64,000 nucleotides of DNA, from assembly GCA_016202605.1 (NCBI GenBank), contig JACQOJ010000065.1, positions 19,907 to 83,906 on the forward strand, written 5' to 3'. Below, piece after piece: positions 4,817 to 57,175 of the stretch (position 1 is its first letter; each line of letters opens with the position of its first letter). Made by a program: the position numbers and the translations under genes. The notes under the pieces were generated by a model that saw nothing but the letters and a program-made list of their open reading frames with translations, had not been told where the DNA came from and ran no database searches. The DNA comes from Betaproteobacteria bacterium (GTDB taxonomy: Bacteria; Pseudomonadota; Gammaproteobacteria; Burkholderiales; SG8-41).

Positions 4817-5926
4817 TCAAATACGCATCGGCATTACGACGTATTTGAATTCAGCAAGATCCGGTAATGTGATGAGCATGCTGCTGTTGGCGTCACCAAA
4901 TAGGCACTCCACCTTTTCCCCCTGGACATTGGTTAACACGTCCAGGAGATAGGTGATATTGAACCCTACATCCAGCGGCTGGCCATTGTAGGTCACGTCC
5001 AGTTCCTCCAGTGCTTCCTCCTGCTCGTTGTTGGTACAGGAAATCCGGAGACTGTTTTCGGTAAGCATCCAGCGGACGCCGCGGAACTTCTCGTTGGAGA
5101 GAATCGCGGCTCGTTGTAGTGCCTGGAGTAATTCCAGGCGGTCTATCATCACGCACCGTGAGTAGTTCGTCGGGATAACGCGGGTGTAGTCCGGAAACTT
5201 TCCATCGATGATTTTCGTGATAAGTTCAATTGTCGAAAAGCGGAATTTTACCTGCGCAGCATACACTTCAATGTCCAGCGGCTCGTCGGCATCCGCGAGA
5301 AGCTTCGTAAGCTCGTGGATCGCCTTGCGAGGCAGGATGATTTCTTTTTTCTCGGGCGGTCCGGCAATTACGCCTGCTGCATAGCTCAGTCGGTGCCCAT
5401 CGGTGGCGACCATCTTGATCTTCTCTCCCTCGACTACCAGCAGCAAGCCATTGAGGTAATACCGTATGTCCTGTTGCGCCATGGCGAATTGGACCAGGAG
5501 CAACCACTCGCGGAACTCTTTTTGCGTAACGCGCAGGCTCACCTGTAGCGCGCCCGGGTCCGCAAGAGTTGGAAAATCTGCTGCCGGCAGTGTCTGCAGA
5601 TTGAACCGGCTTTTCCCTGCCCGCACCTGGAGGCGATTGTTCTGGATATCGAGAACGGCTTCCTCTTTTTCCGGCAGCGCGCGGAGAATATCCTGCAGCT
5701 TACGCGCTGACACGGTAAGGCTCATCTCCTGGCCTGCATGCTCTTGATCTTCCCAGACTGTCGATGCTTGAATTTCCAGGTCTGTCGCAACAAACCAGAA
5801 TCGTTCCTGCTGTCGGCGAATGAGCACGTTTGAAAGAATCGGAAGAGTATGCCGTTTCTCTACGATTCCCGTTACCGCCTGGAGAGGTTTAAGTAGAGCG
5901 TCGCGCTGTGCCTGGAGAAGCTTCAT
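4817..5926 (-). CDS. dnaN: DNA polymerase III beta sliding clamp
   Basis: 369-aa ORF immediately downstream of dnaA. It has clamp length and ends ..KYVVMPMRI, like the E. coli DnaN C-terminus. Confidence 0.95.
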   Translation of the reverse strand: MKLLQAQRDALLKPLQAVTGIVEKRHTLPILSNVLIRRQQERFWFVATDLEIQASTVWEDQEHAGQEMSLTVSARKLQDILRALPEKEEAVLDIQNNRLQVRAGKSRFNLQTLPAADFPTLADPGALQVSLRVTQKEFREWLLLVQFAMAQQDIRYYLNGLLLVVEGEKIKMVATDGHRLSYAAGVIAGPPEKKEIILPRKAIHELTKLLADADEPLDIEVYAAQVKFRFSTIELITKIIDGKFPDYTRVIPTNYSRCVMIDRLELLQALQRAAILSNEKFRGVRWMLTENSLRISCTNNEQEEALEELDVTYNGQPLDVGFNITYLLDVLTNVQGEKVECLFGDANSSMLITLPDLAEFKYVVMPMRI

Positions 5927-5984
5927 AGGAAATAATTCTAGATAATAAGTCTAATAATGGCTGCAGAAGCGGTGATCAAGTGTA

Positions 5985-5999
5985 ATCTTTCTGAAAGAT
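5985..5999. repeat. perfect 7-1-7 palindrome ATCTTTCTGAAAGAT in the dnaA-dnaN spacer
   Basis: Read directly: ATCTTTC-T-GAAAGAT. GATC sites lie at 5973-5976 and 5997-6000, and an AT-rich run (5928-5960) abuts the dnaN start. Confidence 0.9.
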
Positions 6000-6117
6000 C
6001 ATGGCTGTAACGTCGCGAAAGCTTGTGCAAAGAACCATGATAGCTTGTTGATGTTATGTGAAGGGAATTCCTGTTTTCCCCGGGAGGCAAAGATATGCAC
6101 AAAGAGTTCCCGAAAAA

Positions 6118-7458
6118 TCAACTGCGCAGGACCTTCAACAGAGAATTAACATCACGGATGATGTCGCTGTTCGTGGTTCGGAGGAGAGCAACCTTTCTAC
6201 AAGCGTGTAATACAGTTGTGTGATCGCGCCCGCCGAATGCTTCACCAATGTCCGGAAGGCTGAGTTGCGTGAGCTCCTTGGCAAGCGCCATGGCGATCTG
6301 CCGGGGACGCGCAACGTTGCGGCTGCGCTTCTTGGAATACATCTCCGAAACCTTTATCTTGTAATAATCGGCGACGGTGCGCTGGATGTTCTCGATTGAA
6401 ACTTGGCGACTCTGTATGGCGAGCAGATCGCGAAGGGCATCACGGCAGAGATCAACGGAGAGCTCTTGAGCAGAGAAGCGCGCATAGGCGAGAACTCGTT
6501 TGAGTCCTCCTTCGAGCTCCCGGACATTTGACTGGATATGCTTGGCTAGGAAGAAGGCAACGGTTTCATCTAAGGTGATACCTTCTATCTCGGCCTTCTT
6601 GATCAGAATAGCCACGCGCATTTCAAGTTCCGGCGGGTCGACGGCGACAGTGAGGCCCCAGCCGAAACGTGATATGAGTCTGCTCTCGATGCCGGAGATT
6701 TCCTTCGGGTAGGTATCGCAAGTAATTACGAGCTGCTTGTGAGACTCGATAAGAGCGTTGAACGCATAGAAAAACTCTTCTTGAGTACGACTTTTCCCGC
6801 TGAAAAACTGGATATCATCAATCAGGAGAAGATCCAAGGAGTGGTAGTAGCGCTTGAAATCATCGAATGCTTTGTGCTGGTAGGCACGGACTACATCAGA
6901 AACGTACTGCTCTGCGTGGATGTACCGGATCTTGCTCTCCGGAGCGCGTGCGTGAACGGCGTTGCCGACGGCTTGGATAAGATGTGTTTTTCCCAGCCCG
7001 ACACCGCCATATACAAAGAGCGGATTGTAGGCAGTACCGAGCCGCTCTGCCACCTGCGTTGCCGCAGCGCGAGCAAGCTCGTTGGCCTTACCGGTTACAA
7101 AGGTATCGAACGTAAAAGCCGGGTTGAGACGAGAGATATCCCGGTGGCTCGGCCTTGATGGCGGCGCGTGTCCATCGAGGCTTGCCTCCATAGGGGCTGT
7201 AGCCGGAGGGGTGCTGACGGCCTTCGGGGAAAGCAAAAGCCTAACCTCAACGGGTTCCTGAAAACGCGCGGCAGCGAGTTCCTGGACCTTGGAGAGGAAA
7301 CGATCGCGGATCCATTGCAGGACGAACCTGTTAGGTGCAATGAGCGTGAGGACATTACCCTCCGCATGAAACTTCAGGGGTTTGATCCAGGTCTGAAACT
7401 GCTGGGCAGGAAGTTCCTTCTCGAAATGGGAAAGACAGTAACGCCAGAAGCTGTTCAT
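6118..7458 (-). CDS. dnaA: chromosomal replication initiator DnaA
   Basis: 446-aa ORF with Walker [11 protein letters not shown] and LLIDDIQFF. The C-terminal DNA-binding helix-turn-helix region reads ..[16 protein letters not shown]. Confidence 0.97.
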
Positions 7459-19845: not shown

Positions 19846-20709
19846 ATGCCCGGGTCGAAGGAAATACGCAACAAGATCAAGAGCGTGCAAAACACGCGCA
19901 AGATCACCAAGGCGATGGAGATGGTTGCCGCATCCAAAATGCGCCGTGCGCAGGAGCGCATGCGCATGGCGCGGCCTTACGGCGAAAAGATCCGCAACGT
20001 CGCCGCTCACATCAGCCACGCGAACCCCGAATATCGCCATCCCTTCGTCGTGGAGCGCGACACGGTGCGGCGCGTGGGGATGATCGTCGTGACGACCGAC
20101 AAGGGCCTTTGCGGCGGGCTGAACACCAACGTGCTGAGGCTTGCTCTCAGCAGGATGAAGGAGTGGGAAGTCGAGGGGGAAGGCATCGAGGTGTGCGCTA
20201 TCGGCAACAAGGGGCTGGGCTTCATGCAGCGCCTCGGGGCGAAAGTCGCCTCGCACGTGACGGGGCTGGGTGATCGTCCCCACATGGAGAAGCTGATCGG
20301 TGCGGTCAAGATCATGCTCGATGGCTATATCGAAGACCGGTTCGACCGCCTGCTGATCTTCTACACCAAGTTCGTCAACACGATGAAACAGGAACCGGTC
20401 ATGGAGCAGCTCCTGCCGCTTGCCGGGGAACACCTGGGCACGCCGGAAGGCGCGTGGGACTACATCTACGAGCCCGATGCGAAGGACGTCCTCGACCAGG
20501 TGCTCACACGCTATATCGAGGCATTGATCTATCAGGCGGTGTCGGAGAACATGGCGTCGGAGCAGTCAGCGCGCATGGTGGCGATGAAGGCGGCATCGGA
20601 CAACGCTGGCACCGTTATCGACGAACTGACCCTCATTTACAACAAGACGCGCCAGGCTTCGATTACCAAGGAGTTGTCGGAAATCGTGGGCGGCGCCGCG
20701 GCGGTGTGA
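19846..20709 (+). CDS. atpG: F0F1 ATP synthase subunit gamma
   Basis: 287-aa ORF with N-terminus ..[30 protein letters not shown] and C-terminus ..[18 protein letters not shown]. Confidence 0.96.
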
Positions 20710-27562: not shown

Positions 27563-28231
27563 CTATTTCGCGGCGCGCTGCTGGCGGGCCAACCGCACCA
27601 GTTCGTCGAGAATCGGAATCATGCCACTGAGGCCGCCAGCCAAACCTGCGGAAGTGAGATAGCGTCCGTCGACCACCAGGGAAGGCGTTCCCTGAACGTC
27701 GTAAGCGCGGGTCAGCGCCTTTGCCTGCTGCACTTTCTGCGCTACGTCGCTTGAGTTGTAGGCGCCGAGCCATTTTTCGCGCTCGATGCCGTGGCGCACC
27801 GCCCATTGCGCCATGACTTCGGGCTTGCTCATGTGCAGCTCCTGCACGTGGTAGCCATGATAGACCTGCTGGTGCAGTCGTTCGAGTTCGCCGAGTGCTT
27901 CCAGCGTGTAGTAGATTCGTGCGTGCGGGGCCCAGCTGTCCCTGAGGATGACCGGGATCCGGCGCACGGCCACGTCGGCGGGCTTGCGCCGGATCCATTC
28001 CTCGAGCGCCGGCTGCAGATTGTAGCAGTGCGGGCAGCCGTACCAGAAAAAATCGATAACCTCGATCCGGTCGCCGGTTGCGACCTTCTGCGGTTCAATC
28101 AGCCGGAACTCGTTGTTGGGCCGCGCGCGGCGCGGTTCCTGCGCATGGGCGGGTTCGGCGGGAAAGGCCGACGCCAAGCCCCCGGCGAGGATGCACAACG
28201 CCCGGACGAGGAAGCGTCCAGCGGCGTTCAC
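27563..28231 (-). CDS. dsbA: thiol:disulfide interchange protein DsbA (paralogue 1)
   Basis: 222-aa ORF with a signal peptide and the thioredoxin-fold active site FFWYGCPHCYNL. Its start overlaps the stop of the upstream paralogue by 4 bp. Confidence 0.9.
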   Translation of the reverse strand: MNAAGRFLVRALCILAGGLASAFPAEPAHAQEPRRARPNNEFRLIEPQKVATGDRIEVIDFFWYGCPHCYNLQPALEEWIRRKPADVAVRRIPVILRDSWAPHARIYYTLEALGELERLHQQVYHGYHVQELHMSKPEVMAQWAVRHGIEREKWLGAYNSSDVAQKVQQAKALTRAYDVQGTPSLVVDGRYLTSAGLAGGLSGMIPILDELVRLARQQRAAK

Positions 28232-28890
28232 TTGCTGCCGCGGCCCTTGCGGGCGAGCGCGACCACCTCATCCAGCACCCGGAAGTAGCGATCGTAATTG
28301 ATGCTGTTGTCCGGATTGAGCGTCATCGATGGCGCTGTCAGATACCTGCCGTCGACGACCACCGCGGGCGTTCCCGGGATATCGTAGTTGCGCGTCAGGT
28401 CGATCGAACGCTGAGCGCGCGACTGGACCGCAAAGGAATTGTAAGTGTCCATGAATTTCTGCCGATCGACGCCGCGCTTCGCCACCCAGTCAAACAGGAT
28501 CTTTGGATCCTGCAGGCGCACTTTTTGGTCGTGGATCGCCGCGAACACATCGTGATGCAACTTGTCGATCAACCCCATGGCCTCGATCGCATAATATGCC
28601 TTGGTTAGCGGCACCCAGGAATCCTGGAATACCGCGGGCACCCGCCTGAACTCCACGTCGGCGGGCTTGCGCTTGAGCCACGCGGCAAGGGGGGGCTGCA
28701 GGTTGTTGCAATGGGGGCACCCGTACCAGAAAAACTCCAGCACCTCGACCTTCGCCCCACTGCCGACAGGTTGCGGTGGATTGACCAGCCTGTAGTCTCT
28801 GCCGGCTACTGCCTGCGCGGCAGCGGGTCCCGCCGCGAGCAACAAAGCAAAGGTTGCCGCGATGGGAAGGAAACGCGTGAGAAGTCGCAT
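28228..28890 (-). CDS. dsbA: thiol:disulfide interchange protein DsbA (paralogue 2)
   Basis: 220-aa ORF with signal peptide MRLLTRFLPIAATFALLLAAGPAAAQA and active site FFWYGCPHCNNL. It is collinear with paralogue 1. Confidence 0.9.
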   Translation of the reverse strand: MRLLTRFLPIAATFALLLAAGPAAAQAVAGRDYRLVNPPQPVGSGAKVEVLEFFWYGCPHCNNLQPPLAAWLKRKPADVEFRRVPAVFQDSWVPLTKAYYAIEAMGLIDKLHHDVFAAIHDQKVRLQDPKILFDWVAKRGVDRQKFMDTYNSFAVQSRAQRSIDLTRNYDIPGTPAVVVDGRYLTAPSMTLNPDNSINYDRYFRVLDEVVALARKGRGSK

Positions 28891-28918: not shown

Positions 28919-29521
28919 TTAACGCGGAGCGGATTCGCGCACTTTGATGAGCGTGGTTTCCACGCCGTTCCGCTTCAGAGTGTCGCGCGTGCGGTTGAGT
29001 TCCTCGACACTCGTGTAGGGGCCGACGCGCACGCGGTGCCATACGCCCTTGTCCGGGAGCGCCGTCGCCTGGATGCTCGCTTCGATGCCCAGAAGCGCCA
29101 GGCGCGCCTTTAGATTATCCGCATCCGGGGCGCTCTGGAATGCGCCCGCCTGCAGGAAAAAGGACTCCTTCGCGGCCGTCGCGGAAGCTTTCTGCGCGTC
29201 CTTCAGTTGCTGGTCGGTTGCCGGTTCCTCGGTGCCCGGCAGTATCCTGTAAAAATCGAAGCGCGGCTTGCCATCCGGTGCCTTGGGTGCCCGTTCTTCG
29301 CTCCTCGCGACGGGTTCCGGCGCGCTTTTCGACGCTTCGCTCTTGTTGGGGGAAGGCGTCCCGCGGCTGAGGAACGGGCTGGGCATCTTGTTGATGTACC
29401 ACGCCACGCCGAGCGCGATACCGAGCCCCAGAACGAGGCCGATGAGAATACCGACCAGCAGCGAACCGCCGCCTTTGCGACCGCTCCCCTTACGCTCGCT
29501 GCGCTTGTAGTCCTTCGTCAT
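28919..29521 (-). CDS. SPOR domain-containing (FtsN/DedD-like) membrane protein
   Basis: 200-aa ORF with a basic N-terminus and one TM helix (LLVGILIGLVLGLGIALGVAWYI). A Pro/Ser/Lys-rich linker leads to a C-terminal SPOR-like module (FFLQAGAFQSAPDADNLKARLALLG..WHRVRVGPY). Confidence 0.8.
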   Translation of the reverse strand: MTKDYKRSERKGSGRKGGGSLLVGILIGLVLGLGIALGVAWYINKMPSPFLSRGTPSPNKSEASKSAPEPVARSEERAPKAPDGKPRFDFYRILPGTEEPATDQQLKDAQKASATAAKESFFLQAGAFQSAPDADNLKARLALLGIEASIQATALPDKGVWHRVRVGPYTSVEELNRTRDTLKRNGVETTLIKVRESAPR

Positions 29522-35008: not shown

Positions 35009-36430
35009 TCAGCGCGGCAGGGTCGAGCTGCCCGTCAGGAATTCATCGACCGCCCGCGCGCACTGCCGCCCTTCGCGGATCGCCCAGACGACGAGCGACT
35101 GTCCACGGCGCATGTCGCCGGCAACAAACACCCTGTCGAGCGACGCGCGGTAATTTTCCGTATCGGCCCTGACGCTGCTGCGGGCATCTTTCTCGACGCC
35201 AAGCTCGGCGAGCAGCCCGCTTTGGACCGGTCCCAGGAATCCCATCGCCAGCAGCACGAGATCGGCTTTCATTTCGAATTCCGAGCCGGGGATTTCCTGC
35301 ATCCTTCCATCCTGCCACGCCACGCGGGCGGCGATGAGCTTCTCGACCCTGCCGCCGCGGCCCTCGAAACGCTTGGTGGCCACCGCCCAGCCGCGCTCGC
35401 AGCCTTCCTCGTGCGAGGACGAGGTACGTAATTTCACCGGCCAGTAAGGCCACACGAGCGGCTTGTTCTCGCACTCGGGGGGCTGTGGCAGCAGCTCGAA
35501 CTGAGTGATGGACTTGGCCTGTTGCCGATTGGAGGTTCCGACGCAGTCAGAGCCGGTGTCGCCACCACCGATGACCACAACGTGCTTGTCGGTGGCGAGG
35601 ATCTGCCCCGACACCTCCTCGCCCGCGACGGCCCTGTTCTGCTGCGGCAGGAACTCCATTGCGAAATGCACGCCGGCGAGCTCGCGTCCCGGCACCGGCA
35701 AATCGCGCGGCTGCTCGGCGCCGCCGGCGAGCACCAACGCGTCAAAACTTTCGAGCAATGTCCTCGCCGATACGTCGGCGCCGACATGCTGCTTGACGCG
35801 GAACTCCACGCCTTCCGCGCACATCTGATCGAGCCGGCGATCGATATGGCGCTTTTCCATCTTGAAGTCGGGAATGCCGTAACGCAGCAGACCGCCGATA
35901 CGATCGCTCTTTTCAAATACCACGACATCATGGCCGACCCGCGCCAGCTGCTGCGCACAGGCGAGTCCTGCCGGACCCGAACCCACGACCGCAACACGCT
36001 TCCCGGTCCTGGACGCCGGAGGCTGTGGCAATACCCAGCCCATCTCCCAGCCTTTGTCGATGATCGCATGCTCGATCGATTTGATACCGACCGGATCGTT
36101 GTTGATATTGAGCGTGCATGACTCCTCGCAAGGCGCCGGGCACACGCGCCCGGTGAACTCCGGGAAGTTGTTGGTCGAATGGAGGACGTCGAGCGCCCGT
36201 TTCCAGTCCTGTTTGTAAACGAGATCGTTCCAATCCGGAATAATGTTGTTGATCGGGCATCCGCTCATGCAGAACGGCGTGCCGCAGTCCATGCAGCGCG
36301 CGCCCTGGATCCCCGCGTGTTCATCGGACAGCGGAATGACGAACTCGCGGTAATGCTTGACGCGCTCCCGCGGCGCCTGCGCCGCTTCATGCAGGCGCCC
36401 GTATTCCATGAAACCCGTAATCTTGCCCAT
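35009..36430 (-). CDS. gltD: glutamate synthase small (NADPH) subunit
   Basis: 473-aa ORF with N-terminal Fe-S cysteines ([12 protein letters not shown]). Two dinucleotide folds are present ([12 protein letters not shown]; [11 protein letters not shown]). Confidence 0.95.
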
Positions 36431-52504: not shown

Positions 52505-53539
<1,035 letters not shown>

Positions 53540-53589
53540 TTACGACCTGGGTGCGGGAACTATTTGCAATTAAGTTCGTCTTAAAGTTT

Positions 53590-53693
53590 AGACGATGTTT
53601 ATCGTCTCCCGCTTCTCCTCCCTGAGCGGGCGCCTTAATGCTTATTAAGGCTTTTCGCCCCCGGTTTTACTCCCCTTTAACCGGGGGTTTTTT
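53590..53693 (+). ncRNA. candidate small RNA: three hairpins plus a strong intrinsic terminator
   Basis: Four perfect stems occur on the plus strand: GACGAT/ATCGTC, CCCGCT/AGCGGG, GCCTTAAT/ATTAAGGC and CCCCCGGTT/AACCGGGGG, the last followed by TTTTTT. Two loops are C/U-rich (tctcctccctg, ttactccccttt). No plus-strand CDS precedes it. The 5' end is unknown and no clear promoter was found. Confidence 0.35.
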
Positions 53694-54285
53694 ATGCCTG
53701 TCGCAGCCAGTGCGCGATAACCTTCCGGGCGGTGCTGACACCGGTTCCCGTGGTGCTGGAAAAAAGCTGGACACTGCAGTTTCTATATTGGCGCGCCATG
53801 ACTTCGGCTCCTGCCAGCGTCGTCTTTGCTTCCTTCTTATTGAGCTTGTCCGCTTTTGTCAACAGCACGTGCGCCGGCTTGCCGAGCGGTCCAATCCACT
53901 CCAGCATCTGGCGGTCAAGGGCCGTAAACGGATGCCGCGCGTCCATAACGACAATCAGGCCCCGCAGCGCGGATCGAGACTGAATGTAAGCACTCACAAT
54001 GAGACCCCAATTGCGTTTTTCCTGCTTCGAAACAGCGGCATATCCGTACCCCGGCAGGTCGACGAGAAACCGTCCACGCCCGAGGTTGAAGAAGTTTATA
54101 GCCTGCGTACGGCCAGGCGCCTTGCTGGCAAAAGCGAGGTGCCGGCGGTGGGTAAGCGCGTTGATCGCACTCGACTTGCCGGCGTTGGAGCGTCCGGCAA
54201 ACGCCACTTCAAAGTCCCCATCCGGCGGGAAATCGTCAAGACCGTGTGCCGCGCGAAAGAACTGCGCACTACCCGATGGCGACAT
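53692..54285 (-). CDS. engB: ribosome biogenesis GTP-binding protein EngB (YihA/YsxC)
   Basis: 197-aa ORF with G1 motif [16 protein letters not shown] and DLPGYGYA. Confidence 0.94.
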   Translation of the reverse strand: MSPSGSAQFFRAAHGLDDFPPDGDFEVAFAGRSNAGKSSAINALTHRRHLAFASKAPGRTQAINFFNLGRGRFLVDLPGYGYAAVSKQEKRNWGLIVSAYIQSRSALRGLIVVMDARHPFTALDRQMLEWIGPLGKPAHVLLTKADKLNKKEAKTTLAGAEVMARQYRNCSVQLFSSTTGTGVSTARKVIAHWLRQA

Positions 54286-54378
54286 GAGTGCTTGTTTTCG
54301 CTCACAAAGTGGCGTGCCCGGAGGCCCTTACTATACAATACGCCCTTTCCCGGATAAGCCGATAATCGAGGAGCAGGA

Positions 54379-55014
54379 ATGAATTATCGTTCGGCGTTGG
54401 TCATTGTTGCCAACGCGCTGTTGCCGTTCTTGGCGCACGCCCAAGGGGTAATGGAAGGCGATCCTGCCAAGGCGCAGCAGATTGTGACTCAGGTTTGCGC
54501 CGCCTGCCACGGCACCGACGGCAACAGCGCCGTGCCCGCCAACCCCAATCTCGCCGGCCAGCATCCTGAATATACCTTCAAGCAACTGATGAACTTCAAG
54601 GCACAGAATGGAAAACCGGCGGAGCGGCCTAACGCGGTGATGGTCGGGATGGTGGCCAACCTCTCTGTCGAGGACATGCGCAATCTTGCCAGCTATTTTG
54701 GAACCCGGAAGCCCAAGCCGCGTGCGGCTCGCGATCCAGAGCTCGTGAAGCTCGGGCAAGCGATTTACCGCGGGGGAATCACGGCCAAGGGCGTGGCCGC
54801 CTGCTCCGCGTGTCACCAGCCAAACGGCGCCGGAATGCCCGCGCAGTTCCCACGCGTCGCCGGGCAGTTCGCAGAGTATACCGAGCTGCAGATCAAAGCC
54901 TTTCGCTCCGGCGAGCGCGCGAACGATCCCAACCGCATGATGCGCGCGGTCGCGGAAAAACTTTCCGATCGCGAGATCAGGGCCGTCGCAGAGTACATCG
55001 CGGGCCTGCGCTGA
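54379..55014 (+). CDS. dihaem cytochrome c4
   Basis: 211-aa ORF with a signal peptide and two CxxCH haem sites (CAACH, CSACH), each followed by a distal Met region. It is divergent from engB, as in many proteobacteria. Confidence 0.9.
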   Translation: MNYRSALVIVANALLPFLAHAQGVMEGDPAKAQQIVTQVCAACHGTDGNSAVPANPNLAGQHPEYTFKQLMNFKAQNGKPAERPNAVMVGMVANLSVEDMRNLASYFGTRKPKPRAARDPELVKLGQAIYRGGITAKGVAACSACHQPNGAGMPAQFPRVAGQFAEYTELQIKAFRSGERANDPNRMMRAVAEKLSDREIRAVAEYIAGLR

Positions 55015-55093
55015 GCGCCGGCAGCACGTCGACCGCGCCCCGGGCGCAGCGCGCGGATCGGGATTTTCGGCTGTAGCCCGGGCGCGATGTGCC

Positions 55094-56383
55094 TCAGTTC
55101 GCGGCCTTGAGTTCGACGAGAACTCTGCCCGCGGCGTCGAGGGTTTTCTGGATCTCGGCATCGCCGTGCGCGGCGGACACGAAGCCAGCCTCGAAAGCCG
55201 AAGGCGCGAAATAGACGCCCTCTGCAAGCATGGCGTGGAAAAAGTGATTGAAGGCGTCCCTGTCGCATTCCATCACCTCGGCATAGCTTGTCGGCGGGGT
55301 TTCGCGGAAGTAAAGACCGAACATGCCCCCGACGCTGGTGGCCGACAGCTCCACGGCGTACCGACGCGCAGCAGCACTCAGTCCCTCGCACAACCGGCGG
55401 GTCACCGTCGCAAGCCGGTCGTAAAATCCGGGCGCCTGTATCAGCTTCAGTGTGGCGAGCCCCGCAGCGACCGCGACCGGATTGCCGGACAGCGTGCCCG
55501 CCTGATAGACCGGGCCGAGTGGCGCGACTTTTTGCATGATGTCGCGGCGTCCGCCGAAAGCTCCGACAGGCAGCCCGCCGCCGATCACTTTCCCCAGCGT
55601 CGTAAGATCGGGCTTGATGCCGTAAAGACCCTGGGCGCCGGCCAATGAGACGCGGAATCCGGTCATGACCTCGTCAAAAATCAGCACGGCGCCATGCCCG
55701 GTGCACAGCTTGCGCAACGACTCGAGGAAGCCCGGTCGCGGCGCGACCAGACTCATGTTTCCGGCAACCGGTTCAACGATGACGGCGGCGATAGCGTCGC
55801 CGTGCCGTTCGAAAGCCTGTTGCAGCGCGTCGGCGTTGTTGTAGTCGAGCACGATGGTGTTGGCGGCGGTCCCGGCGGGAACCCCGGCCGAGGAAGGCTG
55901 GCCGAGCGCGAGGGCGCCGGAGCCCGCCTTCACCAGCAGCGAATCAGCGTGGCCGTGGTAACAGCCCTCGAATTTCACGATTTTCGCCCGGCCGGTGAAA
56001 CCGCGCGCAAGCCGGATGGCGCTCATCGTGGCCTCGGTTCCCGAACTCACGAGGCGCACTTGTTCGAGCGAGGGCACGAGCCTGCACAGCAGTTCCGCCA
56101 TCTCGATTTCGGCTTCCGTCGGTGCGCCGAAGCTCAAACCTTTGCCGGCGGCACGCTCGACCGCCTTGATCACGTCCGGATGCGAGTGACCGACGATCAG
56201 CGCACCCCATGAGCCGACGTAATCGATGTAGCTGTTGCCGTCGGCGTCCCACACCGTTGCATCCTTGCCGCGCCGGAAAAAAAGCGGTGTGCCGCCCACC
56301 GATCTGAATGCCCGTACGGGCGAATTGACGCCACCGGGAATGAAGTGCTGCGCATGCTGAAAGAGTTTCTGGCTACGCGTCAT
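55094..56383 (-). CDS. hemL: glutamate-1-semialdehyde 2,1-aminomutase
   Basis: 429-aa ORF with N-terminus ..[12 protein letters not shown] and PLP-lysine region [20 protein letters not shown]. Confidence 0.96.
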
Positions 56384-56500
56384 GTTTCAAGGCTCATTGA
56401 GATGATTCGCGGAATGGCGCCGAACCCGACGGTCTGACCCGGTGATCCGTGGGAAATCCGCGGAGGGCGCCCGGGTTTAATGCTTGAGTCTGCCCCTGGT

Positions 56501-57175
56501 TCATCCAAAAAGCGCGCTGAACCGTCTCGCGGCGGCCCGGACATCGTGTGCGGAGAATACGGCCGAAATGACCGCCAGGCTGTCGGCCCCGGCGGCGACA
56601 AGCTGGGTTGCGTTGGCGAGCGTAATCCCTCCGATGGCAACCACCGGTATCGAAAGAGCCTGTTTCGCCTCATGGAGCAGGCGCAACGGCGCGCGCACCG
56701 TGTCAGGTTTGACGCCTGAGGCGAAGAAGCTTCCGAATGCGACATAGCTCGCGCCGGACTGCTGTGCCTGAAGCGCGTTCTGAAGCCGGCCGTAGCAGGA
56801 AGCGCCAAGAATCTTGCCCGTGCCGAGCCGCTCGCGAGCGGCGGCGATTGATCCGTCGTCAACTCCAAGATGAACCCCGTCAGCGCCGGTCTCCAGCGCG
56901 AGTTCGAGATGATCATTTATGATGAGCGGAACGCCGTACATGCGGCAGATGGTGAGCAAAGCCATGGCCTGCTCGCGGCGCAGCGCGCCGCTGGCGGACT
57001 TGTTCCGGTATTGCACGAGGCGCGCGCCGCCGGCCAGGGCTGCGCGGACCTTCGCTTCCAAATGCACTGTGTTGCTTTCGTCAGGAGTGACCACATAAAG
57101 GCCGGCGATTTCGTTTCTCGTCGGCGTCGCAGTCGGTTTCGCCGGAACAGTATCAGTCTTCGTCACGGCCGCCAC
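56501..57175 (-). CDS. thiE: thiamine-phosphate synthase
   Basis: 224-aa ORF with TMP-synthase motifs LVQYRNK, INDHLELAL and GADGVHLG. It overlaps the thiD 3' end by 23 nt. Confidence 0.9.
   Translation of the reverse strand: MAAVTKTDTVPAKPTATPTRNEIAGLYVVTPDESNTVHLEAKVRAALAGGARLVQYRNKSASGALRREQAMALLTICRMYGVPLIINDHLELALETGADGVHLGVDDGSIAAARERLGTGKILGASCYGRLQNALQAQQSGASYVAFGSFFASGVKPDTVRAPLRLLHEAKQALSIPVVAIGGITLANATQLVAAGADSLAVISAVFSAHDVRAAARRFSALFG

Follow-up and report, generated by a model that had tools for sequence, protein, structure and literature searches.

We analysed a 64,000-nucleotide stretch of betaproteobacterial DNA (positions 19,907 to 83,906 of contig JACQOJ010000065.1, hereafter the window), in which the spacer between hemB and engB carries a run of hairpins that ends in an intrinsic terminator. 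By its family match, this hairpin region is the gene of a small RNA (sRNA) of the anti-hemB family, which is already known, and Rfam-based annotation would label the locus automatically. The protein family matches agree with an initial annotation of the spacer in placing the start of hemB at 53509 and the stop of engB at 53692, both on the minus strand, and the stop codon of engB overlaps the U-tail of the sRNA. The features of the locus are as follows.

52505-53509, minus strand: hemB, porphobilinogen synthase (NF006762, 506.9 bits)
53556-53562, plus strand: −35 element GGAACTA of a promoter of sigma-E/AlgU type (extracytoplasmic function, ECF), a conserved motif
53579-53583, plus strand: −10 element TCTTA, 16-nt spacer from the −35 element, a conserved motif
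53590-53695, plus strand: predicted sRNA transcript of the anti-hemB/ncS04 family, ~104-106 nt (from RF02837, our model R1 and the ncS04 layout)
53590-53607, plus strand: hairpin 1 (the 5′ hairpin), 7 bp with loop GUUU in the minimum-free-energy (MFE) fold, beginning at the predicted +1
53591-53606, plus strand: inverted repeat GACGAT/ATCGTC within hairpin 1, perfect in a scripted check
53608-53630, plus strand: hairpin 2, perfect arms CCCGCT/AGCGGG, loop UCUCCUCCCUG, a putative anti-Shine-Dalgarno-like seed
53632-53651, plus strand: hairpin 3, perfect 8-bp arms GCCTTAAT/ATTAAGGC, loop GCUU
53652-53657, plus strand: U-rich linker UUUUCG 5′ of the terminator, a putative Hfq module together with the U-tail
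53658-53693, plus strand: intrinsic terminator with arms CCCCCGGTT/AACCGGGGG (53658-53687), a 9-bp G+C-rich stem and loop UUACUCCCCUUU, then U6
53692-54285, minus strand: engB/yihA (GTPase YihA/YsxC, that is, EngB), convergent with the sRNA (TIGR03598, 218.1 bits)
54379-55014, plus strand: dihaem cytochrome c
55094-56383, minus strand: hemL

The initial annotation had described four perfect hairpins followed by TTTTTT, and a scripted check found all four at the positions it gave, with the T6 run (53688-53693) directly 3′ of the fourth. One description needs a correction: hairpin 1, given as 6 bp, comprises 7 pairs in the fold (53590-53596 with 53601-53607). The MFE fold of the plus strand between 53577 and 53696 consists of exactly these four hairpins at −45.4 kcal/mol, and none of 200 dinucleotide shuffles (−26.5 ± 3.1 kcal/mol) was as good (z = −6.07). 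The same stems also form on the minus strand, as had been cautioned, and the fold there is nearly as strong (z = −5.07). Read on the minus strand, the fourth hairpin is followed by CGAAAAG, and a terminator scan called terminator-like sites on the plus strand only, in line with the earlier view that only the plus-strand reading is a canonical terminator.

Family membership was judged by a covariance-model scan (cmscan against Rfam 15), with the curated gathering score of each family as the threshold. RF02837, "anti-hemB (Burkholderia RNA 7)", matched 53605-53695 on the plus strand along its entire model (positions 1-81 of 81) with 79.1 bits, where the gathering score is 49.5 (E = 1.2e-18), and it was the sole Rfam family to reach its gathering score in the 64-kb window. 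The layout of this family, in which a hairpin bearing UCuCCUCCCUGa as its conserved loop is succeeded by another hairpin and then by a terminator hairpin with a U-tail, is seen in the cmscan alignment, in the fold and in the covariation described below; its position is also that of the family, with the sRNA (53590-53695, plus) upstream of hemB (52505-53509, minus) on the opposite strand. Our own model R1 matched 53590-53696 with 110 bits. The 81-nt Rfam model omits the 5′ hairpin, which is present in ncS04, the family member of Burkholderia cenocepacia. The proposal of a plus-strand sRNA gene with its own terminator is thus borne out by the RF02837 match, but the gene belongs to a known family and is no new candidate.

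The anti-hemB motif was first described by Weinberg et al. 2007 (PMC1950547). In Burkholderia cenocepacia J2315 it corresponds to ncS04, an RNA of 105 nt (292949..293053, plus strand) between BCAL0264 and BCAL0265, with the three genes in the order leftward, rightward, leftward (PMC4603805, PMC5688073). Its transcription start site (TSS) was placed at 292949 by differential RNA sequencing, its 3′ end was confirmed by 3′ rapid amplification of cDNA ends, and a Northern signal was seen (PMC4603805, PMC5688073); it also co-purifies with Hfq (PMC4603805). BCAL0264, BCAL0265 and BCAL0266 are hemB, engB and cytochrome c4 (Sass 2015 supplementary tables), and the window has the same synteny, hemB (minus), sRNA (plus), engB (minus) and cytochrome c4 (plus). 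The 23-nt hairpin 2 is identical between the window and ncS04, and the two RNAs share the order of the four hairpins and the length. The mapped 5′ end of ncS04 lies 1 nt before its 5′ hairpin; together with the common layout, this speaks for an RNA in the window that starts near 53590 and measures about 105 nt. A secondary TSS or processing site has been recorded 38 nt inside ncS04 (J2315 292987, plus strand; coverage 135.9 against 336.3; Sass 2015 supplementary tables), and a shorter form beginning there would lack the 5′ hairpin and start in the loop of hairpin 2.

For comparison, 80 hemB loci were fetched from species-representative genomes with the HemB of the window as the query. The nearest HemB proteins, from Sideroxydans, Gallionellaceae, Nitrosomonadales and "Burkholderiales" metagenome-assembled genomes, were only 74-77% identical. 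Thirteen loci carried a strict hairpin-2 pattern. The covariance model R1, built from these, detected the RNA at 41 of the 80 hemB loci and once in the window. All 41 confident matches lay on the strand opposite hemB, 40 of them about 60-370 nt upstream of it; in the remaining locus (L055) the sRNA was ~1.5 kb from hemB. Of the 41 loci with the sRNA, 20 have engB next to it, so that the linkage of the sRNA to hemB persists without engB.

Two of the checks put forward in the initial annotation were a scan against Rfam and an alignment of orthologous spacers: RF02837 scored above its gathering score, and the stems proved conserved. In an alignment of 43 sequences, 98.5% of cells were standard pairs and 23 of the 27 pairs had changed on both sides (172 cells), counts that are somewhat inflated in that alignment A3 is model-fitted. 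None of 500 shuffles reached the observed values; kinship alone can let sequences beat shuffles without any structure, but controls in which the partners were slid by 1-3 columns (27-53% paired) and the asymmetry described next argue otherwise. Changes on both sides were seen at all seven pairs of hairpin 1 (42 distinct sequences) and all seven modelled pairs of hairpin 3, and five of the six modelled pairs of the terminator stem covaried. An independent MAFFT/RNAalifold alignment of 13 sequences gave the same four hairpins. The U-rich linker is also conserved in alignment A3.

The covariation further bears on the strand. Weinberg et al. 2007 found comparable covariation in both directions and the strand ambiguous (PMC1950547). 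In the stems of our alignment, the plus strand has 82 G-U cells, which would be A-C mismatches on the minus strand, against a single cell of the reverse kind. This asymmetry settles the original ambiguity by sequence alone, and because the terminator and the promoter also point the same way, we take the plus strand to be the selected RNA.

Conservation of the loops differed. In 41 distinct sequences the loop of hairpin 2 invariably contained CCUCCCU while its stem covaried (CG to AU or UA at three pairs). The loop of the terminator carries the motif (U)CCCCUUU (window 53667-53678), which is conserved in most members of the clade with the sigma-E-type promoter and missing from those of Burkholderia and Comamonadaceae. 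Against the Rfam consensus it shows up as an insertion, and it may serve this clade as a second site of pairing. Two pyrimidine-rich loops complementary to ribosome-binding sites (RBSs) had been proposed at the outset: the first of these holds, with its invariant CCUCCCU, while the terminator loop has only CUCCCC and falls short of the full motif.

Upstream of the RNA, the alignment shows a conserved GGAACT(T/A), 16-17 nt, then TC(T/A)(G/T)A, a motif whose end lies 5-6 nt ahead of the base that opens the 5′ hairpin; in alignment A1 its GGAAC part varies little or not at all. In the window it reads GGAACTA-N16-TCTTA-N6-A with the predicted +1 at A53590, and the orthologous −10 elements are TCTTA, TCTGA, TCAGA or TCTCA at the same place. 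The strict motif was found at the fixed position in 19 of 43 covariance-model matches, against a background of 63 matches in 1.02 Mb. All 19 of these loci were among the 23 best-scoring covariance-model matches, and three more of those 23 were near-misses. The promoter-bearing loci combine spacer and discriminator lengths of 16/6 or 17/5 nt, have A or G as the +1 base and are rich in A/T further upstream. The Escherichia coli sigma-E promoter described by Rhodius et al. 2006 has a −35 element GGAACTT and a −10 element TCAAA, prefers a 16-nt spacer (range 15-19) with a 5/6-nt discriminator of inversely related length, starts at A or G and is A/T-rich upstream (PMC1312014). The window promoter agrees with this consensus and spacing, the consensus being that of E. 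coli and the TSS a predicted one that is backed by the 5′ end of ncS04. The new point of this analysis is thus that anti-hemB in this lineage appears, from the conserved motif, to be driven by a sigma-E/AlgU-type promoter. Our literature search, whose coverage was incomplete, found no earlier paper that ties anti-hemB or ncS04 to RpoE.

The initial annotation had found no convincing sigma-70 promoter, and our promoter scan likewise found no sigma-70 site on the plus strand. The best candidate of that annotation, TTGCAA at 53564, has to be given up in favour of the conserved sigma-E-type promoter at 53556-53583, as orthologous loci do not share this hexamer. The sequence TCGTCT occurs twice near the start of the RNA (53577-53582 and 53602-53607), and its upstream copy, in the plus-strand region 53576-53595, can pair with AGACGA (53590-53595) to form an alternative hairpin over the −10 element and the predicted +1, which was flagged by the terminator scan. 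This hairpin would form solely in read-through transcripts or in DNA.

The promoter type is not the same throughout the family. In eight metagenomic loci resembling the B. cepacia complex (L082-L089), which were fetched with an ncS04-specific 36-mer, TATGAT occupies positions −12 to −7 of the mapped TSS, and a GGAACCC lies ~10 nt too far upstream for that TSS; this Burkholderia-type GGAACCC is possibly a relic or a second promoter. Six loci of Comamonadaceae type (L041-L043, L063, L073 and L032) carry the sigma-70-like TTGAAA-N17-TAAATT. That promoter types differ among clades around a conserved RNA suggests that the type of promoter was exchanged between them.

Across the window, the pattern GGAACT-N17/18-TCNNA scored four matches, that of the sRNA promoter included, where 0.55 were expected, and none of 100 shuffles reached four. 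A second sigma-E-type motif, GGAACTC-N17-TCTGA (28975-29003, minus), lies 78 nt upstream of a gene for a DsbA-like thiol:disulfide oxidoreductase (28228-28890, minus), where it falls at the 3′ end of a SPOR gene (FtsN-like); another open reading frame (ORF) of DsbA type, 27563-28231, comes next. Going by the motif and the gene that it precedes, this is a plausible envelope-stress promoter, which would give indirect support for an active sigma-E-type regulon in the host. GGAACT-N17-TCTGA also occurs at 6603-6631 (minus), inside dnaA upstream of dnaN, and at 35800-35828 (plus), antisense within gltD; these two may be chance matches or internal or antisense promoters.

Taken together, the best explanation of the locus is an anti-hemB sRNA of ~105 nt, made in this lineage from a sigma-E-type promoter and acting by base pairing both in trans and in cis, to which we assign a probability of roughly three in four. 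Identity, strand, structure, conservation and promoter motif rest on the observations above, and the mechanism that we infer would run as follows. Transcription of the plus strand would begin at ~53590 and end at the intrinsic terminator (53693-53695), and from the promoter motif its synthesis is predicted to rise under envelope stress, following ECF sigma-E activity. In trans, the single-stranded loop of hairpin 2, CUCCUCCCUG, which resembles the anti-Shine-Dalgarno end of 16S rRNA, would bind the GGAGG-type RBSs of target mRNAs and block their translation, assisted by Hfq bound at the U-rich linker and the terminator U-tail. In cis, the sRNA would pair with the hemB leader or with an engB-hemB read-through transcript, and loop-loop pairing followed by duplex formation could lower the expression of hemB and thereby haem synthesis. 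We read the RNA as an Hfq-type sRNA because of its U6 terminator, its U-rich linker and the co-purification of ncS04 with Hfq. The 3′ end of 16S rRNA reads UCACCUCCUU, and in some members of the family the loop of hairpin 2 reads UCACCUCCCU. Occlusion of the RBS has been proposed for CU-rich sRNAs of B. cenocepacia and for the alpha-proteobacterial cuckoo family (the latter in PMC4615179).

Several observations weigh against this explanation, beside the inflation of the pair counts and the effect of kinship mentioned above. The anti-hemB family has no member with a known target, and our target scan within the window did not discriminate the real seed: sites for the 12-mer complementary to the seed were at chance level in the 64-kb window, duplex energies against the 49 translation-initiation regions in the window were no better than those of shuffled seeds, and the best duplex site (−25 kcal/mol) was internal to a gene for topoisomerase III that the window edge truncates. 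By quantitative PCR, ncS04 showed no significant change across the seven conditions in which it was tested, and its promoter is sigma-70-like (TATGAT), so that sigma-E control is not generalisable to the family; the constant levels of ncS04 fit its own sigma-70-like promoter. Finally, no hemB promoter was located in the window, and the antisense overlap with hemB rests on geometry and on J2315.

The cis part of the mechanism deserves a closer look, as it is also the ground of the strongest alternative. In J2315 the primary TSS of hemB lies at 293115, giving a 248-nt leader that covers ncS04 at 292949-293053 (Sass supplementary tables). In the window, 80 nt separate the hemB ATG from the +1 of the sRNA, a gap filled by the promoter of the sRNA along with the A/T-rich DNA that precedes it. 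We found no hemB promoter between 53510 and 53590, nor any conservation there suggesting one; a sigma-70-like site on the minus strand at 53527-53499 was rejected as a hemB promoter, its −10 element overlapping the conserved start codon of hemB. Because the gap is filled in this way and the hairpin on the engB side is no terminator for the minus strand, transcription of hemB most probably sets out upstream of the sRNA gene and crosses it, in which case the sRNA would be fully complementary to the leader. On this analysis, the hemB leader in the window is probably antisense to the sRNA, and the persistence of the sRNA-hemB linkage in loci without engB supports a cis relationship.

An RNA that acts purely in cis, with the hemB leader as its sole target and the invariant loop serving for kissing-loop initiation or protein binding, would account for the linkage to hemB across Burkholderiaceae-, Comamonadaceae-, Rhodocyclaceae- and Gallionellaceae-like loci, even those without engB, and for the overlap of the hemB leader with the gene in J2315; a 2026 preprint indeed argues for antisense control of hemB. 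The same preprint reports copies that are uncoupled from hemB, and in locus L055 the distance of ~1.5 kb from hemB is likewise at odds with a purely cis action. Moreover, such an RNA leaves unexplained 7-10 invariant loop bases that mimic an anti-Shine-Dalgarno sequence, and association with Hfq is typical of trans-acting sRNAs. Since the loop is invariant, whereas a cis-antisense pair stays complementary under any mutation, cis pairing is not the whole story, and we regard this alternative as unlikely, though it survives better than those that follow.

A functional RNA on the minus strand, namely a structure that regulates in cis from the 5′ leader of hemB or from the intercistronic region between engB and hemB, with the plus-strand features incidental, seems to us considerably less probable still. 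The minus-strand fold is nearly as good as that of the plus strand, 41 loci show a tight linkage of the element to hemB, in J2315 it lies within the hemB leader, and it was as a "hemB motif" with comparable covariation in both directions that it was first presented (PMC1950547). Against this, the 82 G-U cells would become A-C mismatches, a terminator and a conserved promoter exist for the plus strand only, and ncS04 is seen as a plus-strand RNA of its own whose ends have been mapped; as a sole explanation the minus-strand reading is largely refuted. The initial annotation had set exclusive minus-strand transcription of the spacer against the existence of an sRNA, but J2315 has both, with the hemB leader (TSS at −248) overlapping ncS04, and the two readings coexist.

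As for other families, the initial annotation had named "Betaproteobacteria toxic small RNA" (RF02278), which shares with the window RNA a CU-rich anti-Shine-Dalgarno-like motif and a terminator and gave a weak cmscan match. This membership was rejected and is very improbable: 19.8 bits is far under the gathering score of 50, and members are double hairpins of 57-92 nt with a 5′ GUCUCCUCC, an architecture different from the four hairpins and ~105 nt found here. The window holds one copy of the RNA, the copy number in the genome being beyond its reach, and the B. cenocepacia study lists ncS04 apart from its four RF02278 sRNAs. Membership was not supported for ar14/cuckoo (RF02344; 27 bits against 58.8), since CUCCUCCC is present in hairpin 2 only and the terminator loop has CUCCCC, nor for LhrC (27.9 bits against 110). 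Homology to ErsA/Pseudomon-1 (RF01719) was likewise unsupported, with 14.1 bits against 50 and E = 1.3-9.4, comparable to many terminator-driven chance matches; this weak match spans only hairpin 3 and the terminator.

That the locus encodes the 17-residue peptide MFIVSRFSSLSGRLNAY (53595-53648), or a dual-function RNA like Spot 42/SpfP, is the least probable alternative and the ORF was rejected as coding: it is ATG-initiated, its conceptual translation is as initially annotated, and E. coli Spot 42, also next to engB, encodes SpfP, but the ORF in the window has no Shine-Dalgarno sequence, its ATG lies within the variable 5′ hairpin and it is not conserved, being absent in 8 of 24 orthologues examined and in another frame or truncated in most of the others.

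In the wider neighbourhood (52505-57175), hemB and hemL, both of the haem pathway, lie less than 3 kb apart around engB and the dihaem cytochrome c gene, with thiE adjoining. At 4817-7458, dnaA (6118-7458) and dnaN (4817-5926) are on the minus strand, which places the window next to the chromosomal replication origin region.

As a detection, this locus carries little weight, as Rfam annotation would name it anti-hemB. What is added is the lineage-conserved sigma-E-type promoter, the strand drawn from sequences only, and a second C/U motif, specific to the clade, in the loop of the terminator. For anti-hemB, described in 2007, the conserved promoter gives a concrete condition, envelope stress or rpoE induction, under which targets can be sought. 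It is a tentative thought, which we hold to be rather less probable than its opposite, that in Gallionellaceae-, Nitrosomonadales- and Rhodocyclales-like betaproteobacteria anti-hemB is the counterpart of the sigma-E/AlgU envelope-stress sRNAs, an RNA that would be switched on by an ECF sigma factor, would block its targets through the anti-Shine-Dalgarno loop, would throttle haem synthesis, and would share its slot beside engB with ErsA and Spot 42.

The sigma-E-type promoter links anti-hemB conceptually to MicA, RybB and MicL of enterobacteria and to ErsA of Pseudomonas aeruginosa, which have in common with it a promoter of this type with canonical spacing and, as predicted for the window RNA, an Hfq-type architecture. 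There is no demonstrable sequence homology with these RNAs, and the seed in the window is a generic anti-Shine-Dalgarno mimic, unlike their 5′ seeds specific for outer-membrane proteins. The ersA gene, which is sigma-22-dependent in P. aeruginosa, lies within the spacer between polA and engB (PMC8575079), and the window sRNA is also adjacent to engB; this position and the sigma-E-type promoter make a parallel with ErsA that is suggestive but unproven. In E. coli MG1655, spf, the gene of Spot 42, lies between polA and yihA/engB (L081, 4046500-4051500) and is convergent with engB like the window sRNA; convergence was checked for spf, while ersA was compared by position only. Three different sRNA families (anti-hemB, Spot 42 and ErsA) thus occupy a slot adjacent to engB, with no sequence homology shown among them. 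The slot could be an ancient sRNA locus whose promoter was repeatedly rewired, to sigma-E in this lineage, to sigma-70 in Burkholderia and Comamonadaceae and to control by CRP in the case of Spot 42. Only some half of the loci with the anti-hemB sRNA have engB as a neighbour.

With cuckoo/alpha-r14/CcsR (RF02344, PMC4615179) and with RF02278 (ncS03, ncS05, ncS27 and ncS62), the window RNA shares CCUCCUCCC-like anti-Shine-Dalgarno loops on variable, covarying stems. The cuckoo member RSs0680a is reported to be bound by Hfq, as is ncS04, and RBS occlusion is the mode of action presumed for these RNAs. The cuckoo RNAs have CCUCCUCCC in every hairpin loop, whereas the window RNA has the full motif in one loop only. 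It is also present as a single copy in the window, at a locus fixed next to hemB; RF02278 RNAs occur three to five times per genome, and the published sequences of ncS03 and ncS05 differ from it.

The closest likeness by far is to ncS04 and RF02837, with the identical hairpin 2 and its CUCCUCCCUG loop, the order of four hairpins, a length of ~105 nt, a Rho-independent terminator, and a place antisense to and upstream of hemB, convergent with engB and with cytochrome c4 adjoining. Three differences stand out: the host of the window is a betaproteobacterium outside Burkholderia, with a HemB 74-77% identical to its nearest representatives; the terminator loop has the extra conserved C/U-rich motif CUCCCCUUU, inserted relative to the Rfam consensus; and the promoter is of sigma-E type, where the loci of the B. 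cepacia complex have TATGAT at −12 to −7. This swap of sigma-E and sigma-70 promoters between clades is an example of regulatory rewiring around a conserved sRNA.

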